64,000 bases of DNA, taken from the sequence record NC_106597.1; one strand, written 5' to 3'. Source of the DNA: Escherichia phage BB1. The notes below the pieces were generated by a model. It was not told the origin of the DNA. It searched no databases and saw only the letters and a program-made list of their open reading frames with translations. Both the position numbers and the translations under genes were made by a program. Shown piece after piece: positions 50,735 to 63,554 of this stretch; the stretch's first letter is position 1, and every line of letters starts with the position of its first letter.

Positions 50735-51151
50735 TTAATCTACTGCATGTATAAATCTTTTCCTAACTAGATACATAGTTATTGGGTAAATTGAGTACAT
50801 AAGTATCGGGGAGAAAAGGGTGAAATACGCTGTAACTCCCCCAGCTAACATCAAAGGTATTAATGCTAGAGTAAGGGCCATAAGAATCATGCCGAATGAA
50901 ACAGCCAAAGCTATGGATATAGGATTCTCTAGTTCCATCCATAACCAACAATATTTCGTATCTCTATGGCAATTGCATTTACAAACGCCGAATGAACCCA
51001 TAATTATATACTCTAGTCCGTGAATAACCTTTATTAATAAGCTATTTCGGGTAGTTAATGCAATGATAGTAAAGACTATCATTAAAACGAATACTACTAG
51101 ACTTATTTTCCAGATACCTAGCAGCATCATAGTGAATAGTTCTGCAAACAT
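50735..51151 (-). CDS. integral membrane protein (138 aa)
   Basis: Four predicted TM helices and a CxCxC motif; immediately downstream of the endolysin gene. Confidence 0.4.
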   Translation of the reverse strand: MFAELFTMMLLGIWKISLVVFVLMIVFTIIALTTRNSLLIKVIHGLEYIIMGSFGVCKCNCHRDTKYCWLWMELENPISIALAVSFGMILMALTLALIPLMLAGGVTAYFTLFSPILMYSIYPITMYLVRKRFIHAVD

Positions 51152-51228: not shown

Positions 51229-51642
51229 TTAAACTAGTTCGACATGACCGCCATCATAGGTACCACGTTTTATTTCGTCGTGATAATCTCCTGAAGCATT
51301 CCAATCAGCACCAAAACGAAGTTTAATGCCTAGTTCTTTACCAGCTTGTTCAAAAGCCTTTTTAACTGCCCAAAATGCTTCTAAGTCATTCCAATCAATT
51401 TTGCCATTAATGTATGGAGCAAAATCAAGGGCATCCCCAGTAATATGCTTGCTTTTACTAGGATCTTTTAAAAATGAAGTACCATTAGCAATATTCTGGG
51501 CACTTTGTGCTACTGTACGAATACCCTGTACGATCGTGAAATCATATGGAGATAATTCTAAAGCTCTACGAGCTACTTTTTGTAGCTCTGGCTTAACGGT
51601 AGCTAATTGTTTTTCGCTATTTTTACCAAATTTAAAACTCAT
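51229..51642 (-). CDS. endolysin, L-alanyl-D-glutamate peptidase (M15 family, EndoT5-like)
   Basis: 137 aa; SKHITGDALD and GGHVE zinc-ligand motifs. Confidence 0.75.
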   Translation of the reverse strand: MSFKFGKNSEKQLATVKPELQKVARRALELSPYDFTIVQGIRTVAQSAQNIANGTSFLKDPSKSKHITGDALDFAPYINGKIDWNDLEAFWAVKKAFEQAGKELGIKLRFGADWNASGDYHDEIKRGTYDGGHVELV

Positions 51643-52295
51643 ATTGATCTACCTAAAGATCTCTGTTGTGGAGAACAGAGCTTTGTTAAATACTCGTTAA
51701 ATTTCTCAGAATCGGCCGCATCTACAGGATTATCTTTCCAAGCAATACCAATATATCCAGCATAGATATTGTTTAGATTGAAATACGGACAAGTGTATAT
51801 GTAATTAAAAGTAACGTTCTTAAACGCAGGTATATTTAACCCCATGTATTTATTTACTTTTACACTTAAATCCGATGCGTAGTTAAAGCCCTCTAAGTGA
51901 CGTCTATATAGCTCAGACGTTTTATTTACCGCTTTATCGGCCAAGTCAGCCCTATCTAATTGCGCATTGCTTTCCCATGCAATAATGTTAGAATAATCAT
52001 TAATGGCATCGGGTTTATACTTGACGACAAAAACAGCATCTGCACCCGTTTGAGAAAAGAGAACCATGCTCTTTTCTCTAGCTACATTAGGAAAGTTATC
52101 TATCCTTTGAGTTTGAACATCCTGTAGAACCGCAGACGTGGAGAAAGTCTTTAAGAACGACATCACCTCGCTAGTATTACTAACAAATAAGAAAATAATG
52201 ACAGCAACTAAGATAGTTAGCAGACGTTTAAGAAGCGATGCTGGATCTTTCGCTTCTTGGAGCAGTACTGTTAATAATTGTAAGAACTTTTCCAA
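51639..52295 (-). CDS. holin (T4 T-like, large periplasmic domain)
   Basis: 218 aa; single N-terminal TM helix then large soluble domain; TTG start after GGAGG; overlaps the endolysin start (ATGA). Confidence 0.55.
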   Translation of the reverse strand: MEKFLQLLTVLLQEAKDPASLLKRLLTILVAVIIFLFVSNTSEVMSFLKTFSTSAVLQDVQTQRIDNFPNVAREKSMVLFSQTGADAVFVVKYKPDAINDYSNIIAWESNAQLDRADLADKAVNKTSELYRRHLEGFNYASDLSVKVNKYMGLNIPAFKNVTFNYIYTCPYFNLNNIYAGYIGIAWKDNPVDAADSEKFNEYLTKLCSPQQRSLGRSI

Positions 52296-52319: not shown

Positions 52320-52348
52320 ATTATACTAATTTTGGAGGAAAATTACAA
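52320..52348 (-). promoter_or_regulatory. candidate sigma70 promoter for the holin-endolysin operon
   Basis: TTGTAA - 17 bp - TATAAT on the minus strand, 25 nt upstream of the holin start. Confidence 0.4.
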
Positions 52349-52404: not shown

Positions 52405-52442
52405 TTAGATAAAAGAAAAGCCAGGGTCGTTAAACCCTGGCT
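52405..52442 (-). terminator. rho-independent terminator
   Basis: AGCCAGGG-tcgttaaa-CCCTGGCT hairpin followed on the minus strand by TTTCTTTTATC. Confidence 0.6.
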
Positions 52443-52451
52443 TAAAATTAC

Positions 52452-53051
52452 TTACTCTTCGTTATGCTCCTCGGATTGAGGTAACTGGGCTTTATTATAT
52501 TGCTCAGATCGATATTTTGCCAAGATTTCAATACGCTTATGGATTTCTTTGCTATCTAGATAGATATTTTTGTTGTCTTTTACCATCTCGTCGATTTCGT
52601 CTATTGAGAAGAACGGATAGTAGACATCTAGCATCATATCTTCTACGAACTTATTGTAAGATTCATAGGCTTTCTTGATTTCTTGACCCTTCTCACAGAA
52701 TCCGCCGGAGAACGTGTGTCCCATTAGCGTAGCATGTGGATGTACTACCCATCCATGGCAGGATAGGAAAATTGTGCAGTAAGCAGAAGCACTAGGACCA
52801 ACCAGATGTCCTATAACTGTTCCACGGCAATTAGCAATTAAGTTAGATAACTGTGCAGCAGTATCAACATAACCACCAGGGCCATTAATCATCAGATTAA
52901 TTTCGTCGTCCTCATTTGCTTGCATAAGTACCATTGATAAATCACGGTATTCATCTGGCGGACCTAATTCTTCATCAAAGAAAAAGGTATACTCATTAGA
53001 TTGGCGAATGGAGTGAAACAGGTTAGTCTTTTCTTCTTTTTTATTAGTCAT
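52452..53051 (-). CDS. ClpP-like serine peptidase, putative
   Basis: 199 aa; INGPGG followed by a candidate active-site Ser (GPSASAY) and His, as in S14 peptidases. Confidence 0.4.
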   Translation of the reverse strand: MTNKKEEKTNLFHSIRQSNEYTFFFDEELGPPDEYRDLSMVLMQANEDDEINLMINGPGGYVDTAAQLSNLIANCRGTVIGHLVGPSASAYCTIFLSCHGWVVHPHATLMGHTFSGGFCEKGQEIKKAYESYNKFVEDMMLDVYYPFFSIDEIDEMVKDNKNIYLDSKEIHKRIEILAKYRSEQYNKAQLPQSEEHNEE

Positions 53052-53063
53052 AGCGATCCTTGA

Positions 53064-53816
53064 TTATCCAACTAGTGGTTCTAGCTCTAAGTCACAGAAG
53101 TTATAAACTTCTAGTTTAAGGTTATTGATACCATCGAATTTATTAACTAATTCGTGAGTAATATATTTTGCAGGAATACCACTTTCAGATGGATGATCTG
53201 ATTTAATAGTAAACTTCTGCTCAGCGGGTACTACATTTACTATCAAAGAATCCATATCTAAATGGTTTGTTTCTCTGAGTAGCTCTCCTTCATTGGGGAA
53301 TCTAACATCTGTTATTACGGCGACGTCTGGGTCGTCTTTAGCGATGGATTGCTCCAGAATTATGAGCCAAATGCGTTCATGCACCAGCTGCCTTCCTAGC
53401 TCTGTCCCTACGAGCTGTAACATTTTTCTCGGAGAAATAAATAAACTATAAAGTCCGTCTTCTTTATTCTCTGAGATAAGTTGTTGAGGATTAAGGTATT
53501 TTTCCTCAAAAATAGGCCAAACGTACGAGAAGTCTTCAAACTTATCGATACCGTACTTAAACCACACATCTCTGGCTCGCTCCAATTGAGATTGTGTGAC
53601 CGTAAACCATTGGTCAACCTCTTTCCCCCTGCGCTCTCCTAGAAACTCTGGAGTTACACCGAGGATTACGGATGCAAGTTCATAAACGGGCTTAGCAAAA
53701 CTATAACGACGGGATAAACACGTTGGATACGTGTCATTACACCAATCGATAATTAATTTTGCAACGGTATCTTTTCCTGCACCTGCTTCGCCATGCAGAC
53801 CCACTAGTACACTCAT
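53064..53816 (-). CDS. deoxynucleoside monophosphate kinase
   Basis: 250 aa; P-loop GEAGAGKDT at the N-terminus. Confidence 0.6.
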   Translation of the reverse strand: MSVLVGLHGEAGAGKDTVAKLIIDWCNDTYPTCLSRRYSFAKPVYELASVILGVTPEFLGERRGKEVDQWFTVTQSQLERARDVWFKYGIDKFEDFSYVWPIFEEKYLNPQQLISENKEDGLYSLFISPRKMLQLVGTELGRQLVHERIWLIILEQSIAKDDPDVAVITDVRFPNEGELLRETNHLDMDSLIVNVVPAEQKFTIKSDHPSESGIPAKYITHELVNKFDGINNLKLEVYNFCDLELEPLVG

Positions 53817-54349
53817 TTATTAAGTTCCTCTAAAGTTGGTAAAGATTTTGTAGAATCAAAAGTTTCTATAACAGCATTTTCACCGTGCAATTGTAAACGA
53901 AGTTCATTGGCTCTTTTAACGGCGGATCCTAGATATAGGTAATCAAAGTGACCTCCGTATATATTATTACCCTTAGAATTAGCAACGTTTACTTCCCACT
54001 TCTGGTCACGTTTCTTCCAGCTAACTCCTAGATAACCAGATTTACTTCTGGCAGCTTTATTTCTCTGGTTTTCTTGGTTATTGGACTCTCTAAGATTTAG
54101 CCAACGATTGTCACCACCTACGCGGTTTATGTGATCCACCATCTCAGGAAAATAGCCCTCCATATAAAGGAATGCTAGCTGATGTGCTAGGTAAGGTTTT
54201 CCATCTACCTTTATTTGTATATACCCATCTTTCCTAAGTGTACCTGCAATATTACCCGCTTTTTGATTACCAACACTCACTAATCTAGTAAATAATCCAG
54301 TATCAGGGGTATATTCAAGTAATTCCTTTAACCTTTCTTGTGTCACCAC
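53813..54349 (-). CDS. HNH homing endonuclease (intact copy)
   Basis: 178 aa; AHQLAFLYMEGY...VDHINRVGGDNRWLNL...NQENQRNKA HNH core plus AP2-like YLGVSW; stop overlaps the kinase start. Confidence 0.7.
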   Translation of the reverse strand: MVTQERLKELLEYTPDTGLFTRLVSVGNQKAGNIAGTLRKDGYIQIKVDGKPYLAHQLAFLYMEGYFPEMVDHINRVGGDNRWLNLRESNNQENQRNKAARSKSGYLGVSWKKRDQKWEVNVANSKGNNIYGGHFDYLYLGSAVKRANELRLQLHGENAVIETFDSTKSLPTLEELNK

Positions 54350-54350
54350 A

Positions 54351-54704
54351 TTAATCTTTCCTATTGTTAATTGGTGGATAATATACTAAACAACGTTTTT
54401 CTTGCAAATCTTGACGATAGAAGCAAACCATACTTGTCAGTCGTGAAATATATGAATATTCTGCCTCACGGCATTTTGCCAACATATTCCAATCTTTGTA
54501 TGGTACAACAACTACTACGCCATCTTCTCCATTTGTAGCTAGTTTCTTTTCAAACTTAAAGTCAAAGCTACAAGGTTGAAGTCCTTTAGGCCAGTCTACA
54601 TGAGCTTGCTTTAACTCATGAGATGGCTCTGGTTTTATTTCTTCTGCACAGCCTGTGATTGTGATTGCGGCTGCGAGCAGTATTCCAAGTTTCCAGTTAA
54701 ACAT
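54351..54704 (-). CDS. lipoprotein, candidate o-spanin
   Basis: 117 aa; signal peptide with lipobox ITGC; Cys- and Pro-containing mature part; start overlaps the 3' end of the upstream TM/coiled-coil gene. Confidence 0.4.
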   Translation of the reverse strand: MFNWKLGILLAAAITITGCAEEIKPEPSHELKQAHVDWPKGLQPCSFDFKFEKKLATNGEDGVVVVVPYKDWNMLAKCREAEYSYISRLTSMVCFYRQDLQEKRCLVYYPPINNRKD

Positions 54705-55084
54705 GCTAATCTTTCCTCGAACTCTTTACTCTGCTTTTTAGCAATTAATGTTACCAATCCAGGCTTTGCAGCGATAATATCTTGGCGACTAAGAGCTTTG
54801 TCTAACTGCTTAATCTTTTTGTCTAGATCTGCTTGAGAAATATTATTCATTGTGAAATACTGGTTCATTCGAGTCTCACGAAGTTCGCTTTCAGCTTTCA
54901 CCTTATTGAGGGAAGTCTCTAGAGAAGAAATCTTTTTAGTAGCTACCGCAAGATCTCCTGCTAAAGTCTCCACTTTATCTACTAAGTGATAAGCACCGAA
55001 CCCGATGCCTATCGCTAGACCTGCTCCCAGGATATACCACTTACCGTGCCATATTCCTGAAAGAAGTTTTTGTATCAAATCCAT
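54635..55084 (-). CDS. membrane-anchored coiled-coil protein, candidate i-spanin
   Basis: 149 aa; N-terminal TM helix, long coiled coil, C-terminal Cys. Confidence 0.4.
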   Translation of the reverse strand: MDLIQKLLSGIWHGKWYILGAGLAIGIGFGAYHLVDKVETLAGDLAVATKKISSLETSLNKVKAESELRETRMNQYFTMNNISQADLDKKIKQLDKALSRQDIIAAKPGLVTLIAKKQSKEFEERLACLTGNLEYCSQPQSQSQAVQKK

Positions 55085-55739
55085 GCGCTGCTAACCTGTC
55101 TTTATCTGATACTTTAATCATATCAGGCTCACCAGTTCCTAGTACACCGAAGATATACTGTTCGAGAACTTGGTGTAAACGGTATAAGTTACTTTCAATT
55201 TCCTGCCACGGAATACCTGACTGATGGAAACGAATGTTAGTCTGAATTACGAAGTTACGAACATCATCGTTATCGTTCTTTTTAATACCTTTCACATATG
55301 CAATCGGTACACGTAGTTCGGATAAGATACGTTCTGCTTTAGGTTTTGCCTCAACAAGCAAATCACGCATTGTTTCACGAACATCTCCACGACTCTTATC
55401 CAGTAAGTAAGAGCGAGCATGCAATCCCATCTCTTCCATTTTATCGAACATAGTGTCGAGATTAAACGTTTTGAAGCTAAATGCTGGATGCCAACAGTAC
55501 AACTCGTGTAACCAGTAAACTTCACCTGCAACAAATAGTGGGTTTACAAAATATTCGAAATCACCACGGAAAGATAGCGAACCATCACGAAATACCTGGC
55601 GACTATGCACGATATTCTTTTCTGCATCATCAGTTACTTTAACCAGTAGCTCTTCAGTTTTACGCTCCCAAACACGATCGGGGTCAAACAAACTATTCTG
55701 CAAATCATATACATCGGCGAATTTAGAAATGATCCTCAT
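55041..55739 (-). CDS. hypothetical protein (232 aa)
   Basis: ORF directly downstream of a promoter cassette. Confidence 0.45.
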   Translation of the reverse strand: MRIISKFADVYDLQNSLFDPDRVWERKTEELLVKVTDDAEKNIVHSRQVFRDGSLSFRGDFEYFVNPLFVAGEVYWLHELYCWHPAFSFKTFNLDTMFDKMEEMGLHARSYLLDKSRGDVRETMRDLLVEAKPKAERILSELRVPIAYVKGIKKNDNDDVRNFVIQTNIRFHQSGIPWQEIESNLYRLHQVLEQYIFGVLGTGEPDMIKVSDKDRLAAHGFDTKTSFRNMAR

Positions 55740-55770
55740 ATTTAATCCTCTTGCCTCAATCTATAAACAT

Positions 55771-55799
55771 ATTATACAAAAGTTTGGGCATCTAAGCAA
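55771..55799 (-). promoter_or_regulatory. T5-type early sigma70 promoter
   Basis: TTGCTT - 17 bp - TATAAT, leader ...ATAGATTGAGGCAAGAGG. Confidence 0.6.
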
Positions 55800-55807
55800 C
55801 TAAAATT

Positions 55808-55893: not shown

Positions 55894-56274
55894 TTATGTG
55901 ATATTAGTTTCTCTAGCTTTGCGTAGTACCCCTGCATTTCTCCATAATTTGATGTCAGCAACTGTTTCTTTGTACGGAGCAATAGTAGAACCAATTGGGC
56001 CAGCAATTAATAACCCAAAGAATCCTACAATACGCATGTAGAATAAACATTCTTTGCCTGTCATTTTCTCTACTGCCTTTTTCTGCTTTTCATCCTTAAA
56101 TTCATGTTCCTGATCATCAATACGTAGATACTTAACAAACCATTCAGCAGAATATTCGTCCAAATGTCTAATAATAGCTATCGCATATCCAGCACCAATT
56201 AAAAACCAAGTTGTAACAAGAATTAGTAATATAGTCATATCATCTCCAGTTATGGCTAGCAGCCACCTCACCAC
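55894..56274 (-). CDS. membrane protein (126 aa)
   Basis: Three predicted TM helices. Confidence 0.4.
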   Translation of the reverse strand: MVRWLLAITGDDMTILLILVTTWFLIGAGYAIAIIRHLDEYSAEWFVKYLRIDDQEHEFKDEKQKKAVEKMTGKECLFYMRIVGFFGLLIAGPIGSTIAPYKETVADIKLWRNAGVLRKARETNIT

Positions 56275-56348: not shown

Positions 56349-56633
56349 TTAAATATTCCGCATTTCAGCTTTAAACTTTTTCATATTACGAGTTTTTCTA
56401 TAAAAGAAAAGTACAGATGCTGGCCCTAAAAGAATATCCATAGTAAATATCATAGATCTAGCACACCTGAGTAATGTTTTATCATCAAGAGGTGGTAGGT
56501 CTAATGGTCGGGTTTTATGTATAACGTATAATATTACATCTTTATTCTTAGAAATATATAGATCATCAATCAAGCTGTAAATAGCAACCACAGACCCGAT
56601 GACGAACCAAAGAGCAAAGGGAGAGATAATCAT
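56349..56633 (-). CDS. membrane protein (94 aa)
   Basis: Two TM helices. Confidence 0.35.
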   Translation of the reverse strand: MIISPFALWFVIGSVVAIYSLIDDLYISKNKDVILYVIHKTRPLDLPPLDDKTLLRCARSMIFTMDILLGPASVLFFYRKTRNMKKFKAEMRNI

Positions 56634-59449: not shown

Positions 59450-59525
59450 TGGTAGTTAGTAGTGGATTTGAACCACTGTAGTCGCTCCGTATGAAGGAGG
59501 TGCATAACCTCTCTGCCAACTAACT
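59450..59525 (-). tRNA. tRNA-Met (anticodon CAT; could be an Ile2 or initiator type)
   Basis: Hand-folded: 7-bp acceptor, T-arm AGTGG-TTCAAAT-CCACT, anticodon loop TTCATAC, encoded CCA. Confidence 0.55.
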
Positions 59526-59678
59526 AGTTAATTCTTTATAGGTTAGATCTAGAAGATCTTTCTTACTGATAAGTCCTTCTCTATATTGGTCAATAAACAT
59601 ATCTATTCTAGAGTTCTCTGAGACTTCTATATCAGAAAGTTCAGCAAATATTTTTGCAAGTTTATCAATATCTTCCAT
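59521..59678 (-). CDS. hypothetical small protein (52 aa)
   Basis: Sub-threshold ORF between two tRNAs. Confidence 0.25.
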
Positions 59679-59692
59679 ACATAACCTTAATT

Positions 59693-59769
59693 TGGTACTC
59701 CGGGAGGGATTTAAACCCCCGATCTCTCGGTTATCAGCCGAGTGCTTTAGATCGCTAAGCTACCGAAGC
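59693..59769 (-). tRNA. tRNA-Ile (anticodon GAT)
   Basis: Hand-folded: acceptor with G-U pairs, anticodon stem CTCGG/CCGAG, loop CTGATAA, T-arm GGGGG-TTTAAAT-CCCTC, encoded CCA. Confidence 0.55.
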
Positions 59770-59770
59770 A

Positions 59771-59998
59771 TTAACATTTTACAGCAGAGCGTTTGCCATT
59801 TCTAGGTGCACCTGGAAGTCGTGCACGTTCTGCCATTCTTCGCTTAATCTTTGAGATATTTTCTAGTGTTTGTTCTTCAGGCTTAATACTTGAAACACTA
59901 CACCACTGATTACCATCCCATGCGGTAATGATCATAACACCATTACTCATGATCTTTTCTGTAAAAGTAATCCTCATTATAGCAACTCGTCTAAGCAA
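59771..59998 (-). CDS. hypothetical protein
   Basis: 75-aa ORF. Confidence 0.3.
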   Translation of the reverse strand: MLRRVAIMRITFTEKIMSNGVMIITAWDGNQWCSVSSIKPEEQTLENISKIKRRMAERARLPGAPRNGKRSAVKC

Positions 59999-60270
59999 GA
60001 GGTATATTTAAGTTTACCATCTTTATCTACTTTGATTTCGACTTCCGCTCGTGGTACTTGACGAACTGCACCATGAATCATCTTATAGTTAATAGACTTA
60101 GACGGTTCATAATCTTTTGGAAAGACTTGCTTAACCGTTACTACCTTGTACCCCTCACGCGGTGTTAGTACAACTACTTGATCACCTTCTTTGATTTTCC
60201 AAGAGCCAGGAAATTCATAGGTATAGCGTTGACCACCAGTTTGGAACACAACAGAAAGATAACGTTTCAT
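59977..60270 (-). CDS. hypothetical protein (97 aa)
   Basis: Directly downstream of a promoter cassette. Confidence 0.4.
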   Translation of the reverse strand: MKRYLSVVFQTGGQRYTYEFPGSWKIKEGDQVVVLTPREGYKVVTVKQVFPKDYEPSKSINYKMIHGAVRQVPRAEVEIKVDKDGKLKYTSCLDELL

Positions 60271-60300
60271 TTGGTTTCCCTCTCATTAATTTATATAAAT

Positions 60301-60329
60301 ATTATAACAATAAATAAGAGAGAAAGCAA
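60301..60329 (-). promoter_or_regulatory. T5-type early sigma70 promoter
   Basis: TTGCTT - 17 bp - TATAAT, leader ...ATAAATTAATGAGAGGG. Confidence 0.65.
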
Positions 60330-60337
60330 ATGAATTT

Positions 60338-60505
60338 TTAATAAAGTTTAGTCACTTCATAAACTATACTACGAGATTCTTTATTACGTTCTATTAAATT
60401 AGCATATGCTTTTTCAGCTTCATTTTTAGTATTAAAGTCTATAACGTGGGAGGTATTCGCTCTATTTGAATAACTATACCAGATAACTACTAATAATTTA
60501 AACAT
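60338..60505 (-). CDS. hypothetical small protein
   Basis: ORF 60338..60532 starts at GTG inside the adjacent tRNA; ATG at 60505 more likely. Confidence 0.3.
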   Translation of the reverse strand: MFKLLVVIWYSYSNRANTSHVIDFNTKNEAEKAYANLIERNKESRSIVYEVTKLY

Positions 60506-60519
60506 AATAGTCCTTAAAT

Positions 60520-60606
60520 TGGTGCTGGGCACAGGATTCGAACCTGCAACGGGATTACTCCTCCTGATTACAAATCAGGTGCATTCAACCATTCTGCCAA
60601 CCCAGC
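60520..60606 (-). tRNA. tRNA, class II-like (long variable arm), anticodon reads TGT; identity uncertain
   Basis: Perfect 7-bp acceptor, T-arm GCAGG-TTCGAAT-CCTGT, encoded CCA, 3-bp D-stem, 16-nt variable region, anticodon stem CCTGA/TCAGG with loop TTTGTAA. Confidence 0.4.
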
Positions 60607-60614
60607 AGAACCCG

Positions 60615-60779
60615 TTATTTCAACGGGATTTCTTTTTCAATAACAGGAGACTTATCAGTCATAACTGTCATTGCCATTTGTTGTAGAAATTCAAAGGTGA
60701 AGGCTACACGCTCTTCACCAATCTCTACTTCTACACGTTTCTTTTGTTTGTCGATCTTGACTTTTAGGTTATCAGCCAT
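60615..60779 (-). CDS. hypothetical small protein (53 aa)
   Basis: Sub-threshold ORF; ATG overlaps the stop of the upstream 83-aa ORF. Confidence 0.25.
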   Translation of the reverse strand: MADNLKVKIDKQKKRVEVEIGEERVAFTFEFLQQMAMTVMTDKSPVIEKEIPLK

Positions 60780-61023
60780 TAGATAGTACAGTACTGGTAG
60801 TTGGCAATACTACAGATGAAGCAACAGTGTTTAAATGCTTTCTCCAGTCTAGGTTAAATTGTTTTCGAAACTCTTCATAAGGTTCTTCTGGATAAAAGCT
60901 AAAACCTCCTTTCTCATCATTCAGGATAACAGAGCCGTCAGTTTGTTCGTATGCTCGGTATGTTTCTCCAATAACAATAACTCGTTTATCGGTACTTTTA
61001 TTACGAAACTCAAAAACGTGCAT
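60772..61023 (-). CDS. hypothetical protein (83 aa)
   Basis: ATG start at 61023. Confidence 0.35.
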   Translation of the reverse strand: MHVFEFRNKSTDKRVIVIGETYRAYEQTDGSVILNDEKGGFSFYPEEPYEEFRKQFNLDWRKHLNTVASSVVLPTTSTVLSNG

Positions 61024-61039
61024 AATGTTTCCTTAAAGT

Positions 61040-61115
61040 TGGAGCGGCTAGAGGGAATCGAACCCTACTCAGCGAGGCTTGGAAGGCCTGCGACACAACC
61101 CGTGTGCTTAACCGC
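61040..61115 (-). tRNA. tRNA-Gly (anticodon TCC; Trp-CCA reading not excluded)
   Basis: Acceptor GCGGTTA/TAGCCGC, T-loop TTCGATT, anticodon loop CTTCCAA, encoded CCA. Confidence 0.45.
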
Positions 61116-61123
61116 TTATTATT

Positions 61124-61199
61124 TGGCTGGAGAAGGAGGAATCGAACCTACCATTAACGGAGTCAAAGGCCGTTGTGCTAACCGTTACACTACTCTCCA
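61124..61199 (-). tRNA. tRNA-Gln (anticodon TTG)
   Basis: Acceptor TGGAGAG/TTCTCCA, anticodon stem ACGGC/TCCGT, loop CTTTGAC, T-loop TTCGATT, encoded CCA. Confidence 0.5.
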
Positions 61200-61205
61200 A
61201 TTATT

Positions 61206-61281
61206 TGGCTGGAGTGCCTGGGATCGAACCAGGAACCTTCGGAGTCAGAGGCCGACGATCTGCCAATTGATCTACACTCCA
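61206..61281 (-). tRNA. tRNA-Gln (anticodon CTG)
   Basis: Acceptor TGGAGTG/CACTCCA, D-arm GATC-AATTGGCA-GATC, anticodon loop CTCTGAC, T-arm CCTGG-TTCGATC-CCAGG, encoded CCA. Confidence 0.5.
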
Positions 61282-61290
61282 AAAATGCTA

Positions 61291-61527
61291 TTAACTAGAC
61301 GCTGTTTCTACCGGCTGAGATACAGCAGGCTGTTCTAACGTATCTGGTACTGATACAGAGAAAAGAGCTTGTAATGCTGCAATATCACGCTCGTAAGTAT
61401 CAATACGAGTAGTAAGAGTATCTACCATCTGTTTATGGTAGGCTAAGTTATTCTGAGATTCATCTCGAAGAGTTTGCAGTTCTGCAAGACGTGTTAACAT
61501 AATTTCACTAATTAAAGCATTACTCAT
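61291..61527 (-). CDS. hypothetical coiled-coil protein (78 aa)
   Basis: ORF between tRNAs. Confidence 0.35.
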   Translation of the reverse strand: MSNALISEIMLTRLAELQTLRDESQNNLAYHKQMVDTLTTRIDTYERDIAALQALFSVSVPDTLEQPAVSQPVETASS

Positions 61528-61717
61528 TTGTTTCTCCTAAGTTTTCCGGTTCTTCTAAACGTTTGCCTTCATGATCTACTCGAATAACTCCGCATCCTTC
61601 GCAAATCACAACTGCACCATAACCTTCTTTGACCTCAGCTTCTGTAATCAAACCAGAAAGATCACCAGTATCTCTGCCCCACATATCAATGGAGCATTGT
61701 TTGCAGAAATCAGCCAT
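61520..61717 (-). CDS. zinc-ribbon-like small protein (65 aa)
   Basis: CKQC ... CEGCG Cys pairs. Confidence 0.35.
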   Translation of the reverse strand: MADFCKQCSIDMWGRDTGDLSGLITEAEVKEGYGAVVICEGCGVIRVDHEGKRLEEPENLGETNE

Positions 61718-61742
61718 ATTTTATTTCCTATTTAAGTTAATT

Positions 61743-61819
61743 TGGGGTGGCTAGTGGAATTCGAATCCACATAGGCCTGATTCACAATCAGGATCATTAA
61801 CCAGTTATGATATAGCCAC
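61743..61819 (-). tRNA. tRNA-His (anticodon GTG)
   Basis: Acceptor GTGGCTA/TAGCCAC, D-stem TCAT/ATGA, anticodon stem CCTGA/TCAGG with loop TTGTGAA, T-arm GTGGA-TTCGAAT-TCCAC, encoded CCA. Confidence 0.6.
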
Positions 61820-62187
61820 AATTGAAAACTCGCAGGGTTAGCGAAACCATCCTCAATTAGCATGTTCTAGAATACTAATCAAGTTATCTCCTATTGCACG
61901 CAGCTCAAGACGAGTACGAATTTTCAATTGTGGCGGCTCTCAGAAACTCTTCTCCTCTAGCCTTAGCAGCTTACTCCCGAACGCATGTCGGGTAAGTCTT
62001 ACTAAGAACATCAAGTAGCACCGTTACACTTTGAGCCATAGATATATCAAGAAGCAGAAGGACTTGAACCTTCATGAGATAGACCATTTATCTCAGCCGC
62101 TTTATGAGGTATGTTGCAGGGAGTGGATGTTCCCTATAAACCTTTTAGGCAGCCCCGTCTACCGATTCCGGCATACTTCAAGAATTT

Positions 62188-62361
62188 TTATAAACCAGCA
62201 GAAGCCTCATTCAAAGCATCAACAATAGCTTCACGTTGGGTCATTCCATACCCGGTGGAATCTAGGTGGGGCAAATAAGCCATCCATCCCTTATCTGTTT
62301 CATGAAGACATGCTTTAAATTTTTTACCATCCTTCATTGTTACAGTAACTGTTTTGCTCAT
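62188..62361 (-). CDS. hypothetical small protein (57 aa)
   Basis: Sub-threshold ORF with SD AAGGAAA; MSKTVTVTMKDGKKF... Confidence 0.3.
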   Translation of the reverse strand: MSKTVTVTMKDGKKFKACLHETDKGWMAYLPHLDSTGYGMTQREAIVDALNEASAGL

Positions 62362-62381
62362 AAGATTTCCTTATAGTTAAT

Positions 62382-62471
62382 TGGCAGAAGATAATGGAGT
62401 CGAACCATCACCGTATCACTACAGCGGGCTGGTTTTCAAGACCAGTTACGTACCACTACGTCCTATCTTCT
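62382..62471 (-). tRNA. tRNA-Ser (anticodon TGA)
   Basis: 90 nt with long variable arm; anticodon arm CTGGT-CTTGAAA-ACCAG; T-arm GATGG-TTCGACT-CCATT; perfect 7-bp acceptor; encoded CCA. Confidence 0.65.
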
Positions 62472-62477
62472 ATTATT

Positions 62478-62568
62478 TGGCGGAAGAGGAGAGATTTGAA
62501 CTCTCAAGCCGTTTTACCAGTCAGCCACTTTCCAAGCGGTTTTCGTCGCCAATTCGATTTGCTCTTCC
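62478..62568 (-). tRNA. tRNA-Ser (anticodon GGA)
   Basis: 91 nt with long variable arm; anticodon loop TTGGAAA; T-arm GAGAG-TTCAAAT-CTCTC; perfect acceptor GGAAGAG/CTCTTCC; encoded CCA. Confidence 0.6.
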
Positions 62569-62680
62569 AATAATAAGATGATGCCTCTATCACACCAGGC
62601 AGTTACGCCCCGCTGGGATTCGAACCCATTAAAACAGCTCAACCGAGATAGTAGGTTTAATTTACTCTGACCATCAAATT

Positions 62681-62757
62681 TGGTGCGTGACAAGGGATTC
62701 GAACCCTCAAAACCCGACTTCTAAGGACGGTATGTATGCCAATTCCATCAATCACGC
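62681..62757 (-). tRNA. tRNA with anticodon reading TAG (Leu-type anticodon in a short-variable-arm scaffold); identity uncertain
   Basis: Acceptor GCGTGAT/GTCACGC, T-arm GAGGG-TTCGAAT-CCCTT, encoded CCA, anticodon stem CCGTC/GTCGG (one mismatch) with loop CTTAGAA. Confidence 0.4.
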
Positions 62758-62762
62758 ATATT

Positions 62763-62841
62763 TGGTGGAGAATAACGGAATCGAACCGTTCTGATGTCCT
62801 CGGTGCAAGCGAGGTGTCCACTCCATGCAGACCCATTCCCC
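62763..62841 (-). tRNA. tRNA-Ala (anticodon TGC)
   Basis: Acceptor GGGGAAT/ATTCTCC with the G3-U70 pair diagnostic of tRNA-Ala; anticodon stem CCTCG/CGAGG, loop CTTGCAC; T-arm AACGG-TTCGATT-CCGTT; encoded CCA. Confidence 0.6.
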
Positions 62842-63079
62842 AAATTCTTTAGTTTACTAAGGCTATTAGCTCGGCGTAACTACAGCACCTTCGCTTCGAG
62901 CGGAAGGAACCGCGTCATCTCGCAAACCCGATACACTATTCAGTTGCCGCTGAATCTAGTGGACTAATCTAGAACTTCTCCCGAATCGTAGGGATCGTGC
63001 TTTTTGGCAGCCAGTCCTAGGTCGAGCTAATACCTTAGTGAACTATGATGAGGATTTCTCCTCATCAATTTATATAAAT

Positions 63080-63108
63080 ATTATAACAAGAAATTAAGCA
63101 TCAAGCAA
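63080..63108 (-). promoter_or_regulatory. T5-type early sigma70 promoter with no downstream ORF (drives a non-coding leader and the tRNA cluster)
   Basis: TTGCTT - 17 bp - TATAAT; leader ATTTATATAAATTGATGAGGAGAAATCCTCATC forms a hairpin over the SD-like GAGGAG; no ATG follows. Confidence 0.6.
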
Positions 63109-63126
63109 CTGCATTTTTCTTGAAAT

Positions 63127-63205
63127 TGGTAGATCGCCTGGGACTCGAACCCAGAACCTTCCGATTAAAAGTCGGATGCTACTAAACCTATTGAGCTAGC
63201 GATCT
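63127..63205 (-). tRNA. tRNA-Lys (anticodon TTT)
   Basis: Perfect acceptor AGATCGC/GCGATCT, anticodon stem TCCGA/TCGGA with loop CTTTTAA, T-arm CTGGG-TTCGAGT-CCCAG, encoded CCA. Confidence 0.55.
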
Positions 63206-63206
63206 A

Positions 63207-63374
63207 TTAGTAACCATTATATACTTCTTTAATAGAGTGAACTTTCAAGTAAGGGTGATTAATCCCAAACTTCGCCATTACTTCTTTCTCATCTTTTCCA
63301 TAATGAGCAAGTAAGGATTTTGAGGTATTCTTACCTAAACGTTTGTCACTTACTACTAATCGAAATACTTTCAT
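63207..63374 (-). CDS. hypothetical small protein (55 aa)
   Basis: Sub-threshold ORF with SD AGAGGA 6 nt upstream, between two tRNAs. Confidence 0.3.
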   Translation of the reverse strand: MKVFRLVVSDKRLGKNTSKSLLAHYGKDEKEVMAKFGINHPYLKVHSIKEVYNGY

Positions 63375-63394
63375 TTCGAAATCCTCTATTAAAA

Positions 63395-63472
63395 TGGAAG
63401 CGGGTGCAGGAATCGAACCTACCTCTTTCTAGCTTATGAGACTAGCGATCTCTACCAGAGATCTAACCCGCA
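63395..63472 (-). tRNA. tRNA-Met (anticodon CAT), second copy
   Basis: Anticodon loop CTCATAA, T-arm GTAGG-TTCGATT-CCTGC, encoded CCA; 1:72 position unpaired. Confidence 0.5.
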
Positions 63473-63478
63473 ATTGTT

Positions 63479-63554
63479 TGGTCAGTGCGGCAGGACTCGA
63501 ACCTGCGACCCGAAGCATCCAAGGCTCCCACGCTACCAACTGCGCTACGCACTG
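63479..63554 (-). tRNA. tRNA-Pro (anticodon TGG)
   Basis: Perfect acceptor CAGTGCG/CGCACTG, D-arm GCGC-AGTTGGTA-GCGT, anticodon loop CTTGGAT, T-arm GCAGG-TTCGAGT-CCTGC, encoded CCA. Confidence 0.6.

Follow-up and report, generated by a model that had tools for sequence, protein, structure and literature searches.

Two overlapping genes of the window, by which we mean the whole 64000-nucleotide stretch of DNA that was analysed, very probably encode a two-component spanin of the T5 family, whose predicted role is to disrupt the outer membrane of the host in the final step of lysis. The assignment of function rests on homology together with sequence features: judged by sequence, the pair belongs to the published T5 spanin family, and as such is already known, and it has all of the sequence-level hallmarks of a two-component spanin. 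With these genes, the lysis gene set of this T5-like phage (holin, endolysin and spanins) is complete. The biology and the family, down to the 70-bp overlap, have been in print since 2018, and a call made from features has little wider importance; it does help annotation, because many T5-like GenBank records say 'hypothetical protein' or omit the overlapped o-spanin.

Identification of an overlapping i-spanin/o-spanin gene pair

The pair comprises the following features.

54635-55084, minus strand: i-spanin gene, ATG start, 149 aa; homologue of T5.045
54351-54704, minus strand: o-spanin gene, ATG start, 117 aa precursor and 99 aa mature lipoprotein; homologue of T5.044
54635-54704, minus strand: dual-coding overlap of 70 bp, in differing frames

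The first-pass annotation had described genes for a 149-aa and a 117-aa protein, the second starting 70 bp inside the first in another frame, and the listing of open reading frames agrees with this exactly. For the i-spanin the overlap codes for the 23 C-terminal residues, C128 and C136 among them, and for the o-spanin the 23 N-terminal ones, i.e. its signal peptide and lipobox.

The window belongs to a Tequintavirus (T5-like phage), and its last 25 kb are ~94-95% identical to several Tequintavirus phages. At the DNA level, 445 phage records match the region 54000-55800, nearly all of them from Escherichia or Salmonella Tequintavirus, and many of the ~446 locus-bearing phage records label the pair as i-/o-spanin or Rz-like spanin. 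The 149-aa and 117-aa proteins are 100% identical to the 'i-spanin' bas31_0137 and the 'o-spanin' bas31_0138 of phage DaisyDussoix respectively, and T5.045 is 88% identical to the i-spanin and T5.044 97% identical to the o-spanin. Both of these T5 genes are annotated as 'Rz-like spanin' in the T5 reference record (NC_005859.1), with a note of T4 PseT.2 similarity. In addition, the i-spanin matches PHROG 739 (E 2.2e-37) and the o-spanin PHROG 812 (E 5.1e-30), both of which carry the name 'Rz-like spanin'. The two proteins had been put forward in the first-pass annotation as a candidate i-spanin/o-spanin pair, a proposal that is supported by the identity with DaisyDussoix and T5, by these PHROG matches and by the homology with T4 PseT.3/PseT.2 described below. 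By similarity, both subunits fall within the T5 spanin family (Kongari et al. 2018; PHROG 739/812), the 'T5 family' of i-/o-spanins having been defined by Kongari et al. in 2018, who wrote that 'the T5 spanins overlap by 70 bp' (PMC6139136). A full-text literature search for T5.044/T5.045 found nothing. We also observed that in many GenBank records one or both genes are given as 'hypothetical protein', or the o-spanin is mislabelled as an i-spanin or as 'putative terminase'.

The two-component spanin is a functional class, reportedly also defined by Summer in 2007. Membership of this class was assessed by the criteria of Kongari et al. 2018 (PMC6139136), which gave the following picture for the pair. 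The i-spanin has a single N-terminal transmembrane domain (type II) and a periplasmic domain that is predicted to be mainly helical from a model of modest confidence, and the o-spanin has a lipoprotein signal with a lipobox and without an inner-membrane retention signal. Each subunit has, from its sequence, at least one periplasmic cysteine available for a homotypic disulfide. Of the arrangements seen in spanin genes (embedded, overlapping or directly following), the pair has the overlapping one, in the form of the out-of-frame 70-bp overlap. With six periplasmic cysteines in total, it belongs to a class that Kongari et al. counted as 16 of 526 systems (PMC6139136).

Features of the i-spanin

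A single hydrophobic segment was found in the i-spanin.

54980-55036, minus strand: predicted transmembrane segment, residues 17-35, YILGAGLAIGIGFGAYHLV

This segment is Gly-rich and of borderline hydrophobicity, with a Kyte-Doolittle 19-residue maximum of 1.55 at residue 17, the equivalent segment scoring 2.0-2.4 in distant homologues; it is invariant among five T5-like sequences. Lys is found before the segment and acidic residues after it, which by the positive-inside rule suggests an N-in/C-out orientation. Within residues ~22-63 there is a 28-residue window in which every a/d heptad position is hydrophobic, a pattern equalled in 24 of 2000 shuffles, and a single-sequence AlphaFold model has helices at residues 2-79, 84-101, 109-116 and 120-129 (mean pLDDT 64.5), a model of low-to-moderate confidence which was used for helix boundaries alone. 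The protein had earlier been described as having one N-terminal transmembrane helix and a long coiled coil; the helix was found at residues 17-35, and the coiled coil was verified in part, through the heptad window and the modelled helices, so that a long coiled coil is plausible, with modest support. The cysteines of the protein are C128 and C136, and the KPxL motif is invariant in a multi-genus alignment. A PDB sequence search did not find a solved structure of a relative.

Features of the o-spanin and its translation start

The N-terminus of the o-spanin, MFNWKLGILLAAAITITGC, is made up of an n-region containing K5, a hydrophobic core and the lipobox I-T-G-C.

54648-54659, minus strand: o-spanin lipobox I-T-G-C, residues 16-19, found by regular-expression match; Cys19 is the predicted lipidated residue
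54714-54718, minus strand: Shine-Dalgarno-like GAGGA, lying within the i-spanin reading frame, 9 nt upstream of the o-spanin ATG

Cys19 is followed by Ala20 (the +2 position) and Glu21, with no Asp at +2. The earlier reading of this protein as a lipoprotein with the lipobox ITGC is thereby borne out, with ITG preceding Cys19 and Ala at +2, and in our alignment G18-C19 is invariant across four Demerecviridae genera and T4 PseT.2. The periplasmic cysteines of the o-spanin are C45, C78, C94 and C105, and the residues that are invariant in the multi-genus alignment are the lipobox Gly-Cys, P39, P68, Y85, C94, Y96, E102 and C105. The single-sequence AlphaFold model of this subunit was unreliable (pLDDT 48.8) and nothing was concluded from it. 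Phages Shiner and Stitch have an annotated ribosome-binding site at the place equivalent to GAGGA. In several relatives the o-spanin start is GTG, not ATG.

Genomic context and transcription

The lysis genes and the genes that lie between them and the spanin pair are as follows.

51229-51642, minus strand: endolysin, 137 aa, M15-like; PHROG 465, E 2.2e-54; homologue of T5.040 (lys); 4-bp overlap with the holin gene
51639-52295, minus strand: T-type holin, 218 aa; PF11031 Phage_holin_T, E 8.1e-114; PHROG 860; homologue of T5.041
52320-52348: holin promoter-like site, downstream of the terminator-like hairpin
52418-52443, minus strand: strong intrinsic-terminator-like hairpin, 11 bp stem and T run
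52452-53051: ClpP-like gene
53064-53816: dNMP kinase gene (dnk)
53813-54349, minus strand: HNH endonuclease gene; PF13392; PHROG 99

A T-like holin and an endolysin had been noted as an overlapping pair at 51229-52295, separated from the spanin genes by ClpP-like, kinase and HNH genes. The 4-bp overlap, PF11031 and PHROG 465 bear out the former, with the M15 call itself below cutoff (Pfam Peptidase_M15_4 at 23.2 bits against 25), and the ORF listing and family searches agree on the latter. The gene order T5.047-like gene, i-spanin, o-spanin, dnk, ClpP-like gene, holin, endolysin is found in Tequintavirus, Sugarlandvirus, Hongcheonvirus and Novosibvirus. Judged from this order, a spacing of ~2 kb from the holin-endolysin pair is normal and conserved throughout the four Demerecviridae genera examined, and no peculiarity of this genome. 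The pair also occupies the locus of the T5 spanin family, from the T5.047 homologue to dnk and upstream of the ClpP-like gene and the holin-endolysin pair, the sole difference being the HNH insert.

The T5.047 homologue at 55739 has a TATAAT box and a Shine-Dalgarno sequence in front of it, and the terminator-like hairpin and the promoter-like site lie between the ClpP-like gene and the holin gene; the T5 record lists a terminator and a promoter at the positions equivalent to 52418-52443 and 52320-52348. From the T5 annotation and consensus scans, the spanin genes seem to form one transcription unit with T5.047, dnk and the ClpP-like gene, apart from the holin-endolysin pair, and the hairpin at 52418-52443 appears to end this predicted unit.

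Some further observations were made on the surrounding genes. The T5.047 homologue (55041-55739, minus strand, 232 aa; PHROG 4243, unknown function) is the first gene of the apparent spanin operon and overlaps the i-spanin start by 44 bp; the label 'DNA polymerase III subunit epsilon', which it bears in some records, has no family support, and there was no Pfam match. One gene downstream of the endolysin there is a 138-aa ORF (50735-51151, minus strand) that corresponds by position and by its 417-bp length to T5.039, annotated in the T5 record as a hypothetical protein with four transmembrane domains; the adjoining lysis genes could hint at a lysis-regulatory role for it. Upstream of the operon, two small ORFs on the minus strand (55894-56274, 126 aa, and 56349-56633, 94 aa) correspond by position to T5.048 and T5.049, each of which is annotated with two transmembrane domains in the T5 record. 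The 12 tRNA genes at 59450-63554, minus strand (Met, Ile, Thr, Gln x2, His, Ser, Leu, Ala, Lys, Met and Pro), form a typical T5 tRNA region, in which the predicted tRNA-Thr is unusually long, at 87 nt versus 75 nt in the T5 annotation. Within dnk, the sequence around the T5 'major DNA single-chain interruption', CCCCCTGCGCTCTCC, is exactly conserved at ~53623-53642 (GCGC at 53631), and the phage probably has the same genomic nick site as T5. A second GCGC is found at 55085, directly upstream of the i-spanin ATG.

Homology with the T4 spanins and alternative functions

In pairwise BLASTP, the o-spanin matched T4 PseT.2 over nearly its full length (E 3e-7, 28% identity) and the i-spanin matched T4 PseT.3 from the transmembrane segment to the KPGLV motif (E 5e-6, 28% identity). 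The invariant o-spanin residues C94 and C105 align with the C-terminal Cys 87 and Cys 98 of PseT.2. The T4 genes pseT.3/pseT.2 complement the lysis defect of lambda RzamRz1am (Kongari et al. 2018, PMC6139136), and C87 and C98 of PseT.2 are both essential (PMC6139136). The homology with the T4 PseT.3/PseT.2 family thus extends to this cysteine pair.

It might be argued that the lipoprotein, with or without its partner, acts not in lysis but as an envelope-modifying or superinfection-exclusion factor, in the manner of T5 Llp, which blocks FhuA. Such a role would be in keeping with a small lipoprotein of outer-membrane type whose gene lies in an early-region operon among nucleotide-metabolism genes, away from the holin-endolysin pair, and our literature search found no direct lysis experiment on a T5-family pair. 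However, Llp is presumably encoded at another locus, beside the receptor-binding protein gene, and in four Demerecviridae genera the o-spanin never occurs without a PseT.3-like bitopic helical partner. Moreover, its nearly full-length homology is with a validated spanin, PseT.2, of which it keeps the essential Cys pair (PMC6139136), and we regard an exclusion function as very unlikely.

More improbable still is a periplasm-spanning complex with some other role (anchoring, envelope remodelling in DNA transfer, or timing), with another factor disrupting the outer membrane. Such a complex would fit the location of the spanin genes in a transcription unit apart from the holin-endolysin pair, as well as the resemblance of the i-spanin to generic bitopic coiled-coil proteins, of which a weak FtsL-like match at E 2e-4, far below cutoff, is an example. 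Yet linkage to t and e is also lacking for the T4 homologues, which work as spanins nonetheless (PMC6139136), the first-pass notes on the window named no other spanin candidate, and the phage records inspected annotate just this pair as spanins within the stretches retrieved. Both of these alternatives are disfavoured because of the PseT.3/PseT.2 homology and the obligatory pairing across genera.

Conservation of both reading frames

The conservation of the two genes was examined in 28 T5-like loci, namely the window and 27 IMG/VR contigs. Both the i-spanin and the o-spanin ORFs are intact in all 28; the overlap is 70 bp in 25, and in the other three the genes are 666 bp apart with a homing endonuclease gene between them. 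Variable sites were then counted by codon position among the 25 overlapped loci. In the part that encodes only the i-spanin, 65 of 116 third positions are variable versus 10 of 117 second positions, and in the part that encodes only the o-spanin the figures are 49 of 95 and 10 of 95 respectively. Within the overlap, the third positions of the o-spanin frame vary little (4 of 23) and are as constrained as second positions, as expected because of dual coding. These data show that purifying selection acts on both frames.

Distant relatives, with 23-45% identity, were found in Klebsiella Sugarlandvirus, Pectobacterium Hongcheonvirus and Proteus Novosibvirus. They keep the transmembrane segment and the C-terminal C-x2-G-x4-C motif of the i-spanin, as well as the lipobox and the four periplasmic cysteines of the o-spanin at matching columns, and their annotated overlaps are 88, 34 and 10 bp. 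Some of the start codons in these annotations look misplaced: the i-spanin of Shiner and the o-spanin of M4H10_20 both seem N-terminally truncated. Minor allelic variants, the GTG starts among them, were noted in relatives (loci L002, L025, L027, L029, L034 and L036); in phage slur09 (L002, 844-1272) the i-spanin stops 7 codons early, which gives a 49-bp overlap.

That one or both ORFs are chance open frames with a meaningless overlap, for which nothing more speaks than how often short ORFs arise in alternative frames of AT-rich DNA in general, can be ruled out by their integrity in 28/28 loci, by the third-codon-position bias in each frame, and by proteins that are still recognizable at 23-45% identity in other genera, and also in T4, with the lipobox/Cys pattern kept.

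Predicted mode of action of the T5-family spanin

For the pair as a two-component spanin, we propose a mode of action along the lines of the lambda and T4 models. The i-spanin would insert in the inner membrane through its N-terminal transmembrane segment, N-in/C-out, and extend a largely α-helical domain into the periplasm. The o-spanin would, after export and lipidation at Cys19, be delivered to the inner leaflet of the outer membrane, the sorting being predicted because Ala, not Asp, is at +2. The two periplasmic domains may then bind each other to form a complex that spans the periplasm through the peptidoglycan meshwork, probably stabilized by disulfide-linked homodimers, for which the conserved cysteines at hand are C94 and C105 in the o-spanin and C128 and C136 in the i-spanin. 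Once the T-type holin has freed the M15-type endolysin and the murein has been degraded, the freed complexes would fuse the inner and outer membranes, and this fusion would remove the last barrier to lysis. The 70-bp overlap represents compact coding, the o-spanin having its own putative Shine-Dalgarno sequence within the i-spanin gene.

Homing endonuclease genes around the spanin pair

The HNH gene occupies precisely the junction of the o-spanin stop (54351) with the dnk start (53816): it starts with GTG, 1 nt past the TAA of the o-spanin gene, and its own stop codon overlaps the ATG of dnk. In T5 and in most relatives, dnk directly abuts the o-spanin stop, and the HNH gene is rare, being found in nine phage records, eight at 99.8% identity and one, phage H8, at 91%, with flanks at 94-96%. 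Three independent endonuclease insertion sites bracket the pair, namely hegF upstream, a T5orf172-type gene between the two spanin genes, and the HNH gene downstream, the last being the one occupied in the window; phage H8 (L031) carries all three insertions. The T5orf172-type endonuclease is called GIY-YIG in the literature, and the between-gene site was published in 2018, an example being Shivani and phiR201, in which a homing endonuclease gene of ~700 bp parts the i-spanin gene from the o-spanin gene (PMC6139136).

The N-tail of the i-spanin (55041-55084 in the window, and loci L011-L038) occurs in three variants which track the upstream neighbour: MDLIQKLL... with a T5.047-type gene upstream that overlaps by 44 bp, M[RW]K[WG]FVDLVW... 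with hegF upstream, and MIKNFI... with a divergent T5.047 allele upstream (56-64% identity). The cytoplasmic N-tail and the extreme C-tail of the i-spanin vary by junction, but the CxxGxxxxC motif is preserved in every case, as is the lipobox. It is possible, albeit doubtful, that the spanin pair is a hotspot at which homing-endonuclease traffic remodels the spanin termini and the gene architecture. The downstream HNH site and the correlation between N-tail and upstream neighbour may perhaps not have been pointed out before.

Comparison with known spanin systems

The closest comparison is with T5.045/T5.044 of T5 itself, which share with the present pair the 70-bp overlap, the lipobox ITGC, the six periplasmic cysteines and the flanking genes (T5.047 upstream and dnk downstream). 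They differ in the N-tail of the i-spanin, which is MDLIQKLL... here but MRKWFVDL... in T5, a difference that tracks the absence of hegF upstream here, and in the HNH gene between the o-spanin gene and dnk, which is absent in T5.

With T4 PseT.3/PseT.2 the pair has in common homology of both subunits, a transmembrane segment and a helical domain with the KPGLV motif in the i-spanin, a lipobox and a C-terminal C-x10-C in the o-spanin, and genes that are unlinked to the holin and endolysin genes. In contrast, the T4 genes are classed as separated (a 4-bp overlap, versus 70 bp here); PseT.3 is cysteine-free, whereas the i-spanin here has a C-terminal extension with C128 and C136; and PseT.2 has two periplasmic cysteines, as opposed to four in the o-spanin here. 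The pair therefore departs from the T4 family in the separation of the genes and in the cysteine-free i-spanin, but, as far as sequence comparison can indicate, the overlap and the i-spanin cysteines are variant features that give no grounds against T4 homology.

Lambda Rz/Rz1, the prototype of the two-component spanins, and P2 LysB/LysC resemble the pair in consisting of a predicted type II inner-membrane protein and an outer-membrane lipoprotein, presumably with the same membrane-fusion function. In lambda, however, Rz1 is fully embedded in Rz and has 40 aa in its mature form, much shorter than the 99-aa mature o-spanin here, and the lambda and P2 spanin genes sit within the lysis cassette. 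P2 LysB/LysC is the prototype of the overlapped architecture, which the pair shares (PMC6139136). There is no sequence similarity to the lambda and P2 proteins: a Pfam scan of both proteins and of the T4 pair assigned none of them to a family, those of lambda Rz and Rz1 included, at E≤0.01 or even at E≤10, and Pfam and NCBIfam scans of both proteins gave just sub-threshold matches to generic coiled-coil/bitopic proteins such as FtsL. The first-pass label 'Rz/Rz1-type' consequently holds for function and architecture but not for sequence family, the relatives being T4 PseT.3/PseT.2, and the pair is best described as predicted functional analogues of lambda Rz/Rz1 and not as members of their family.
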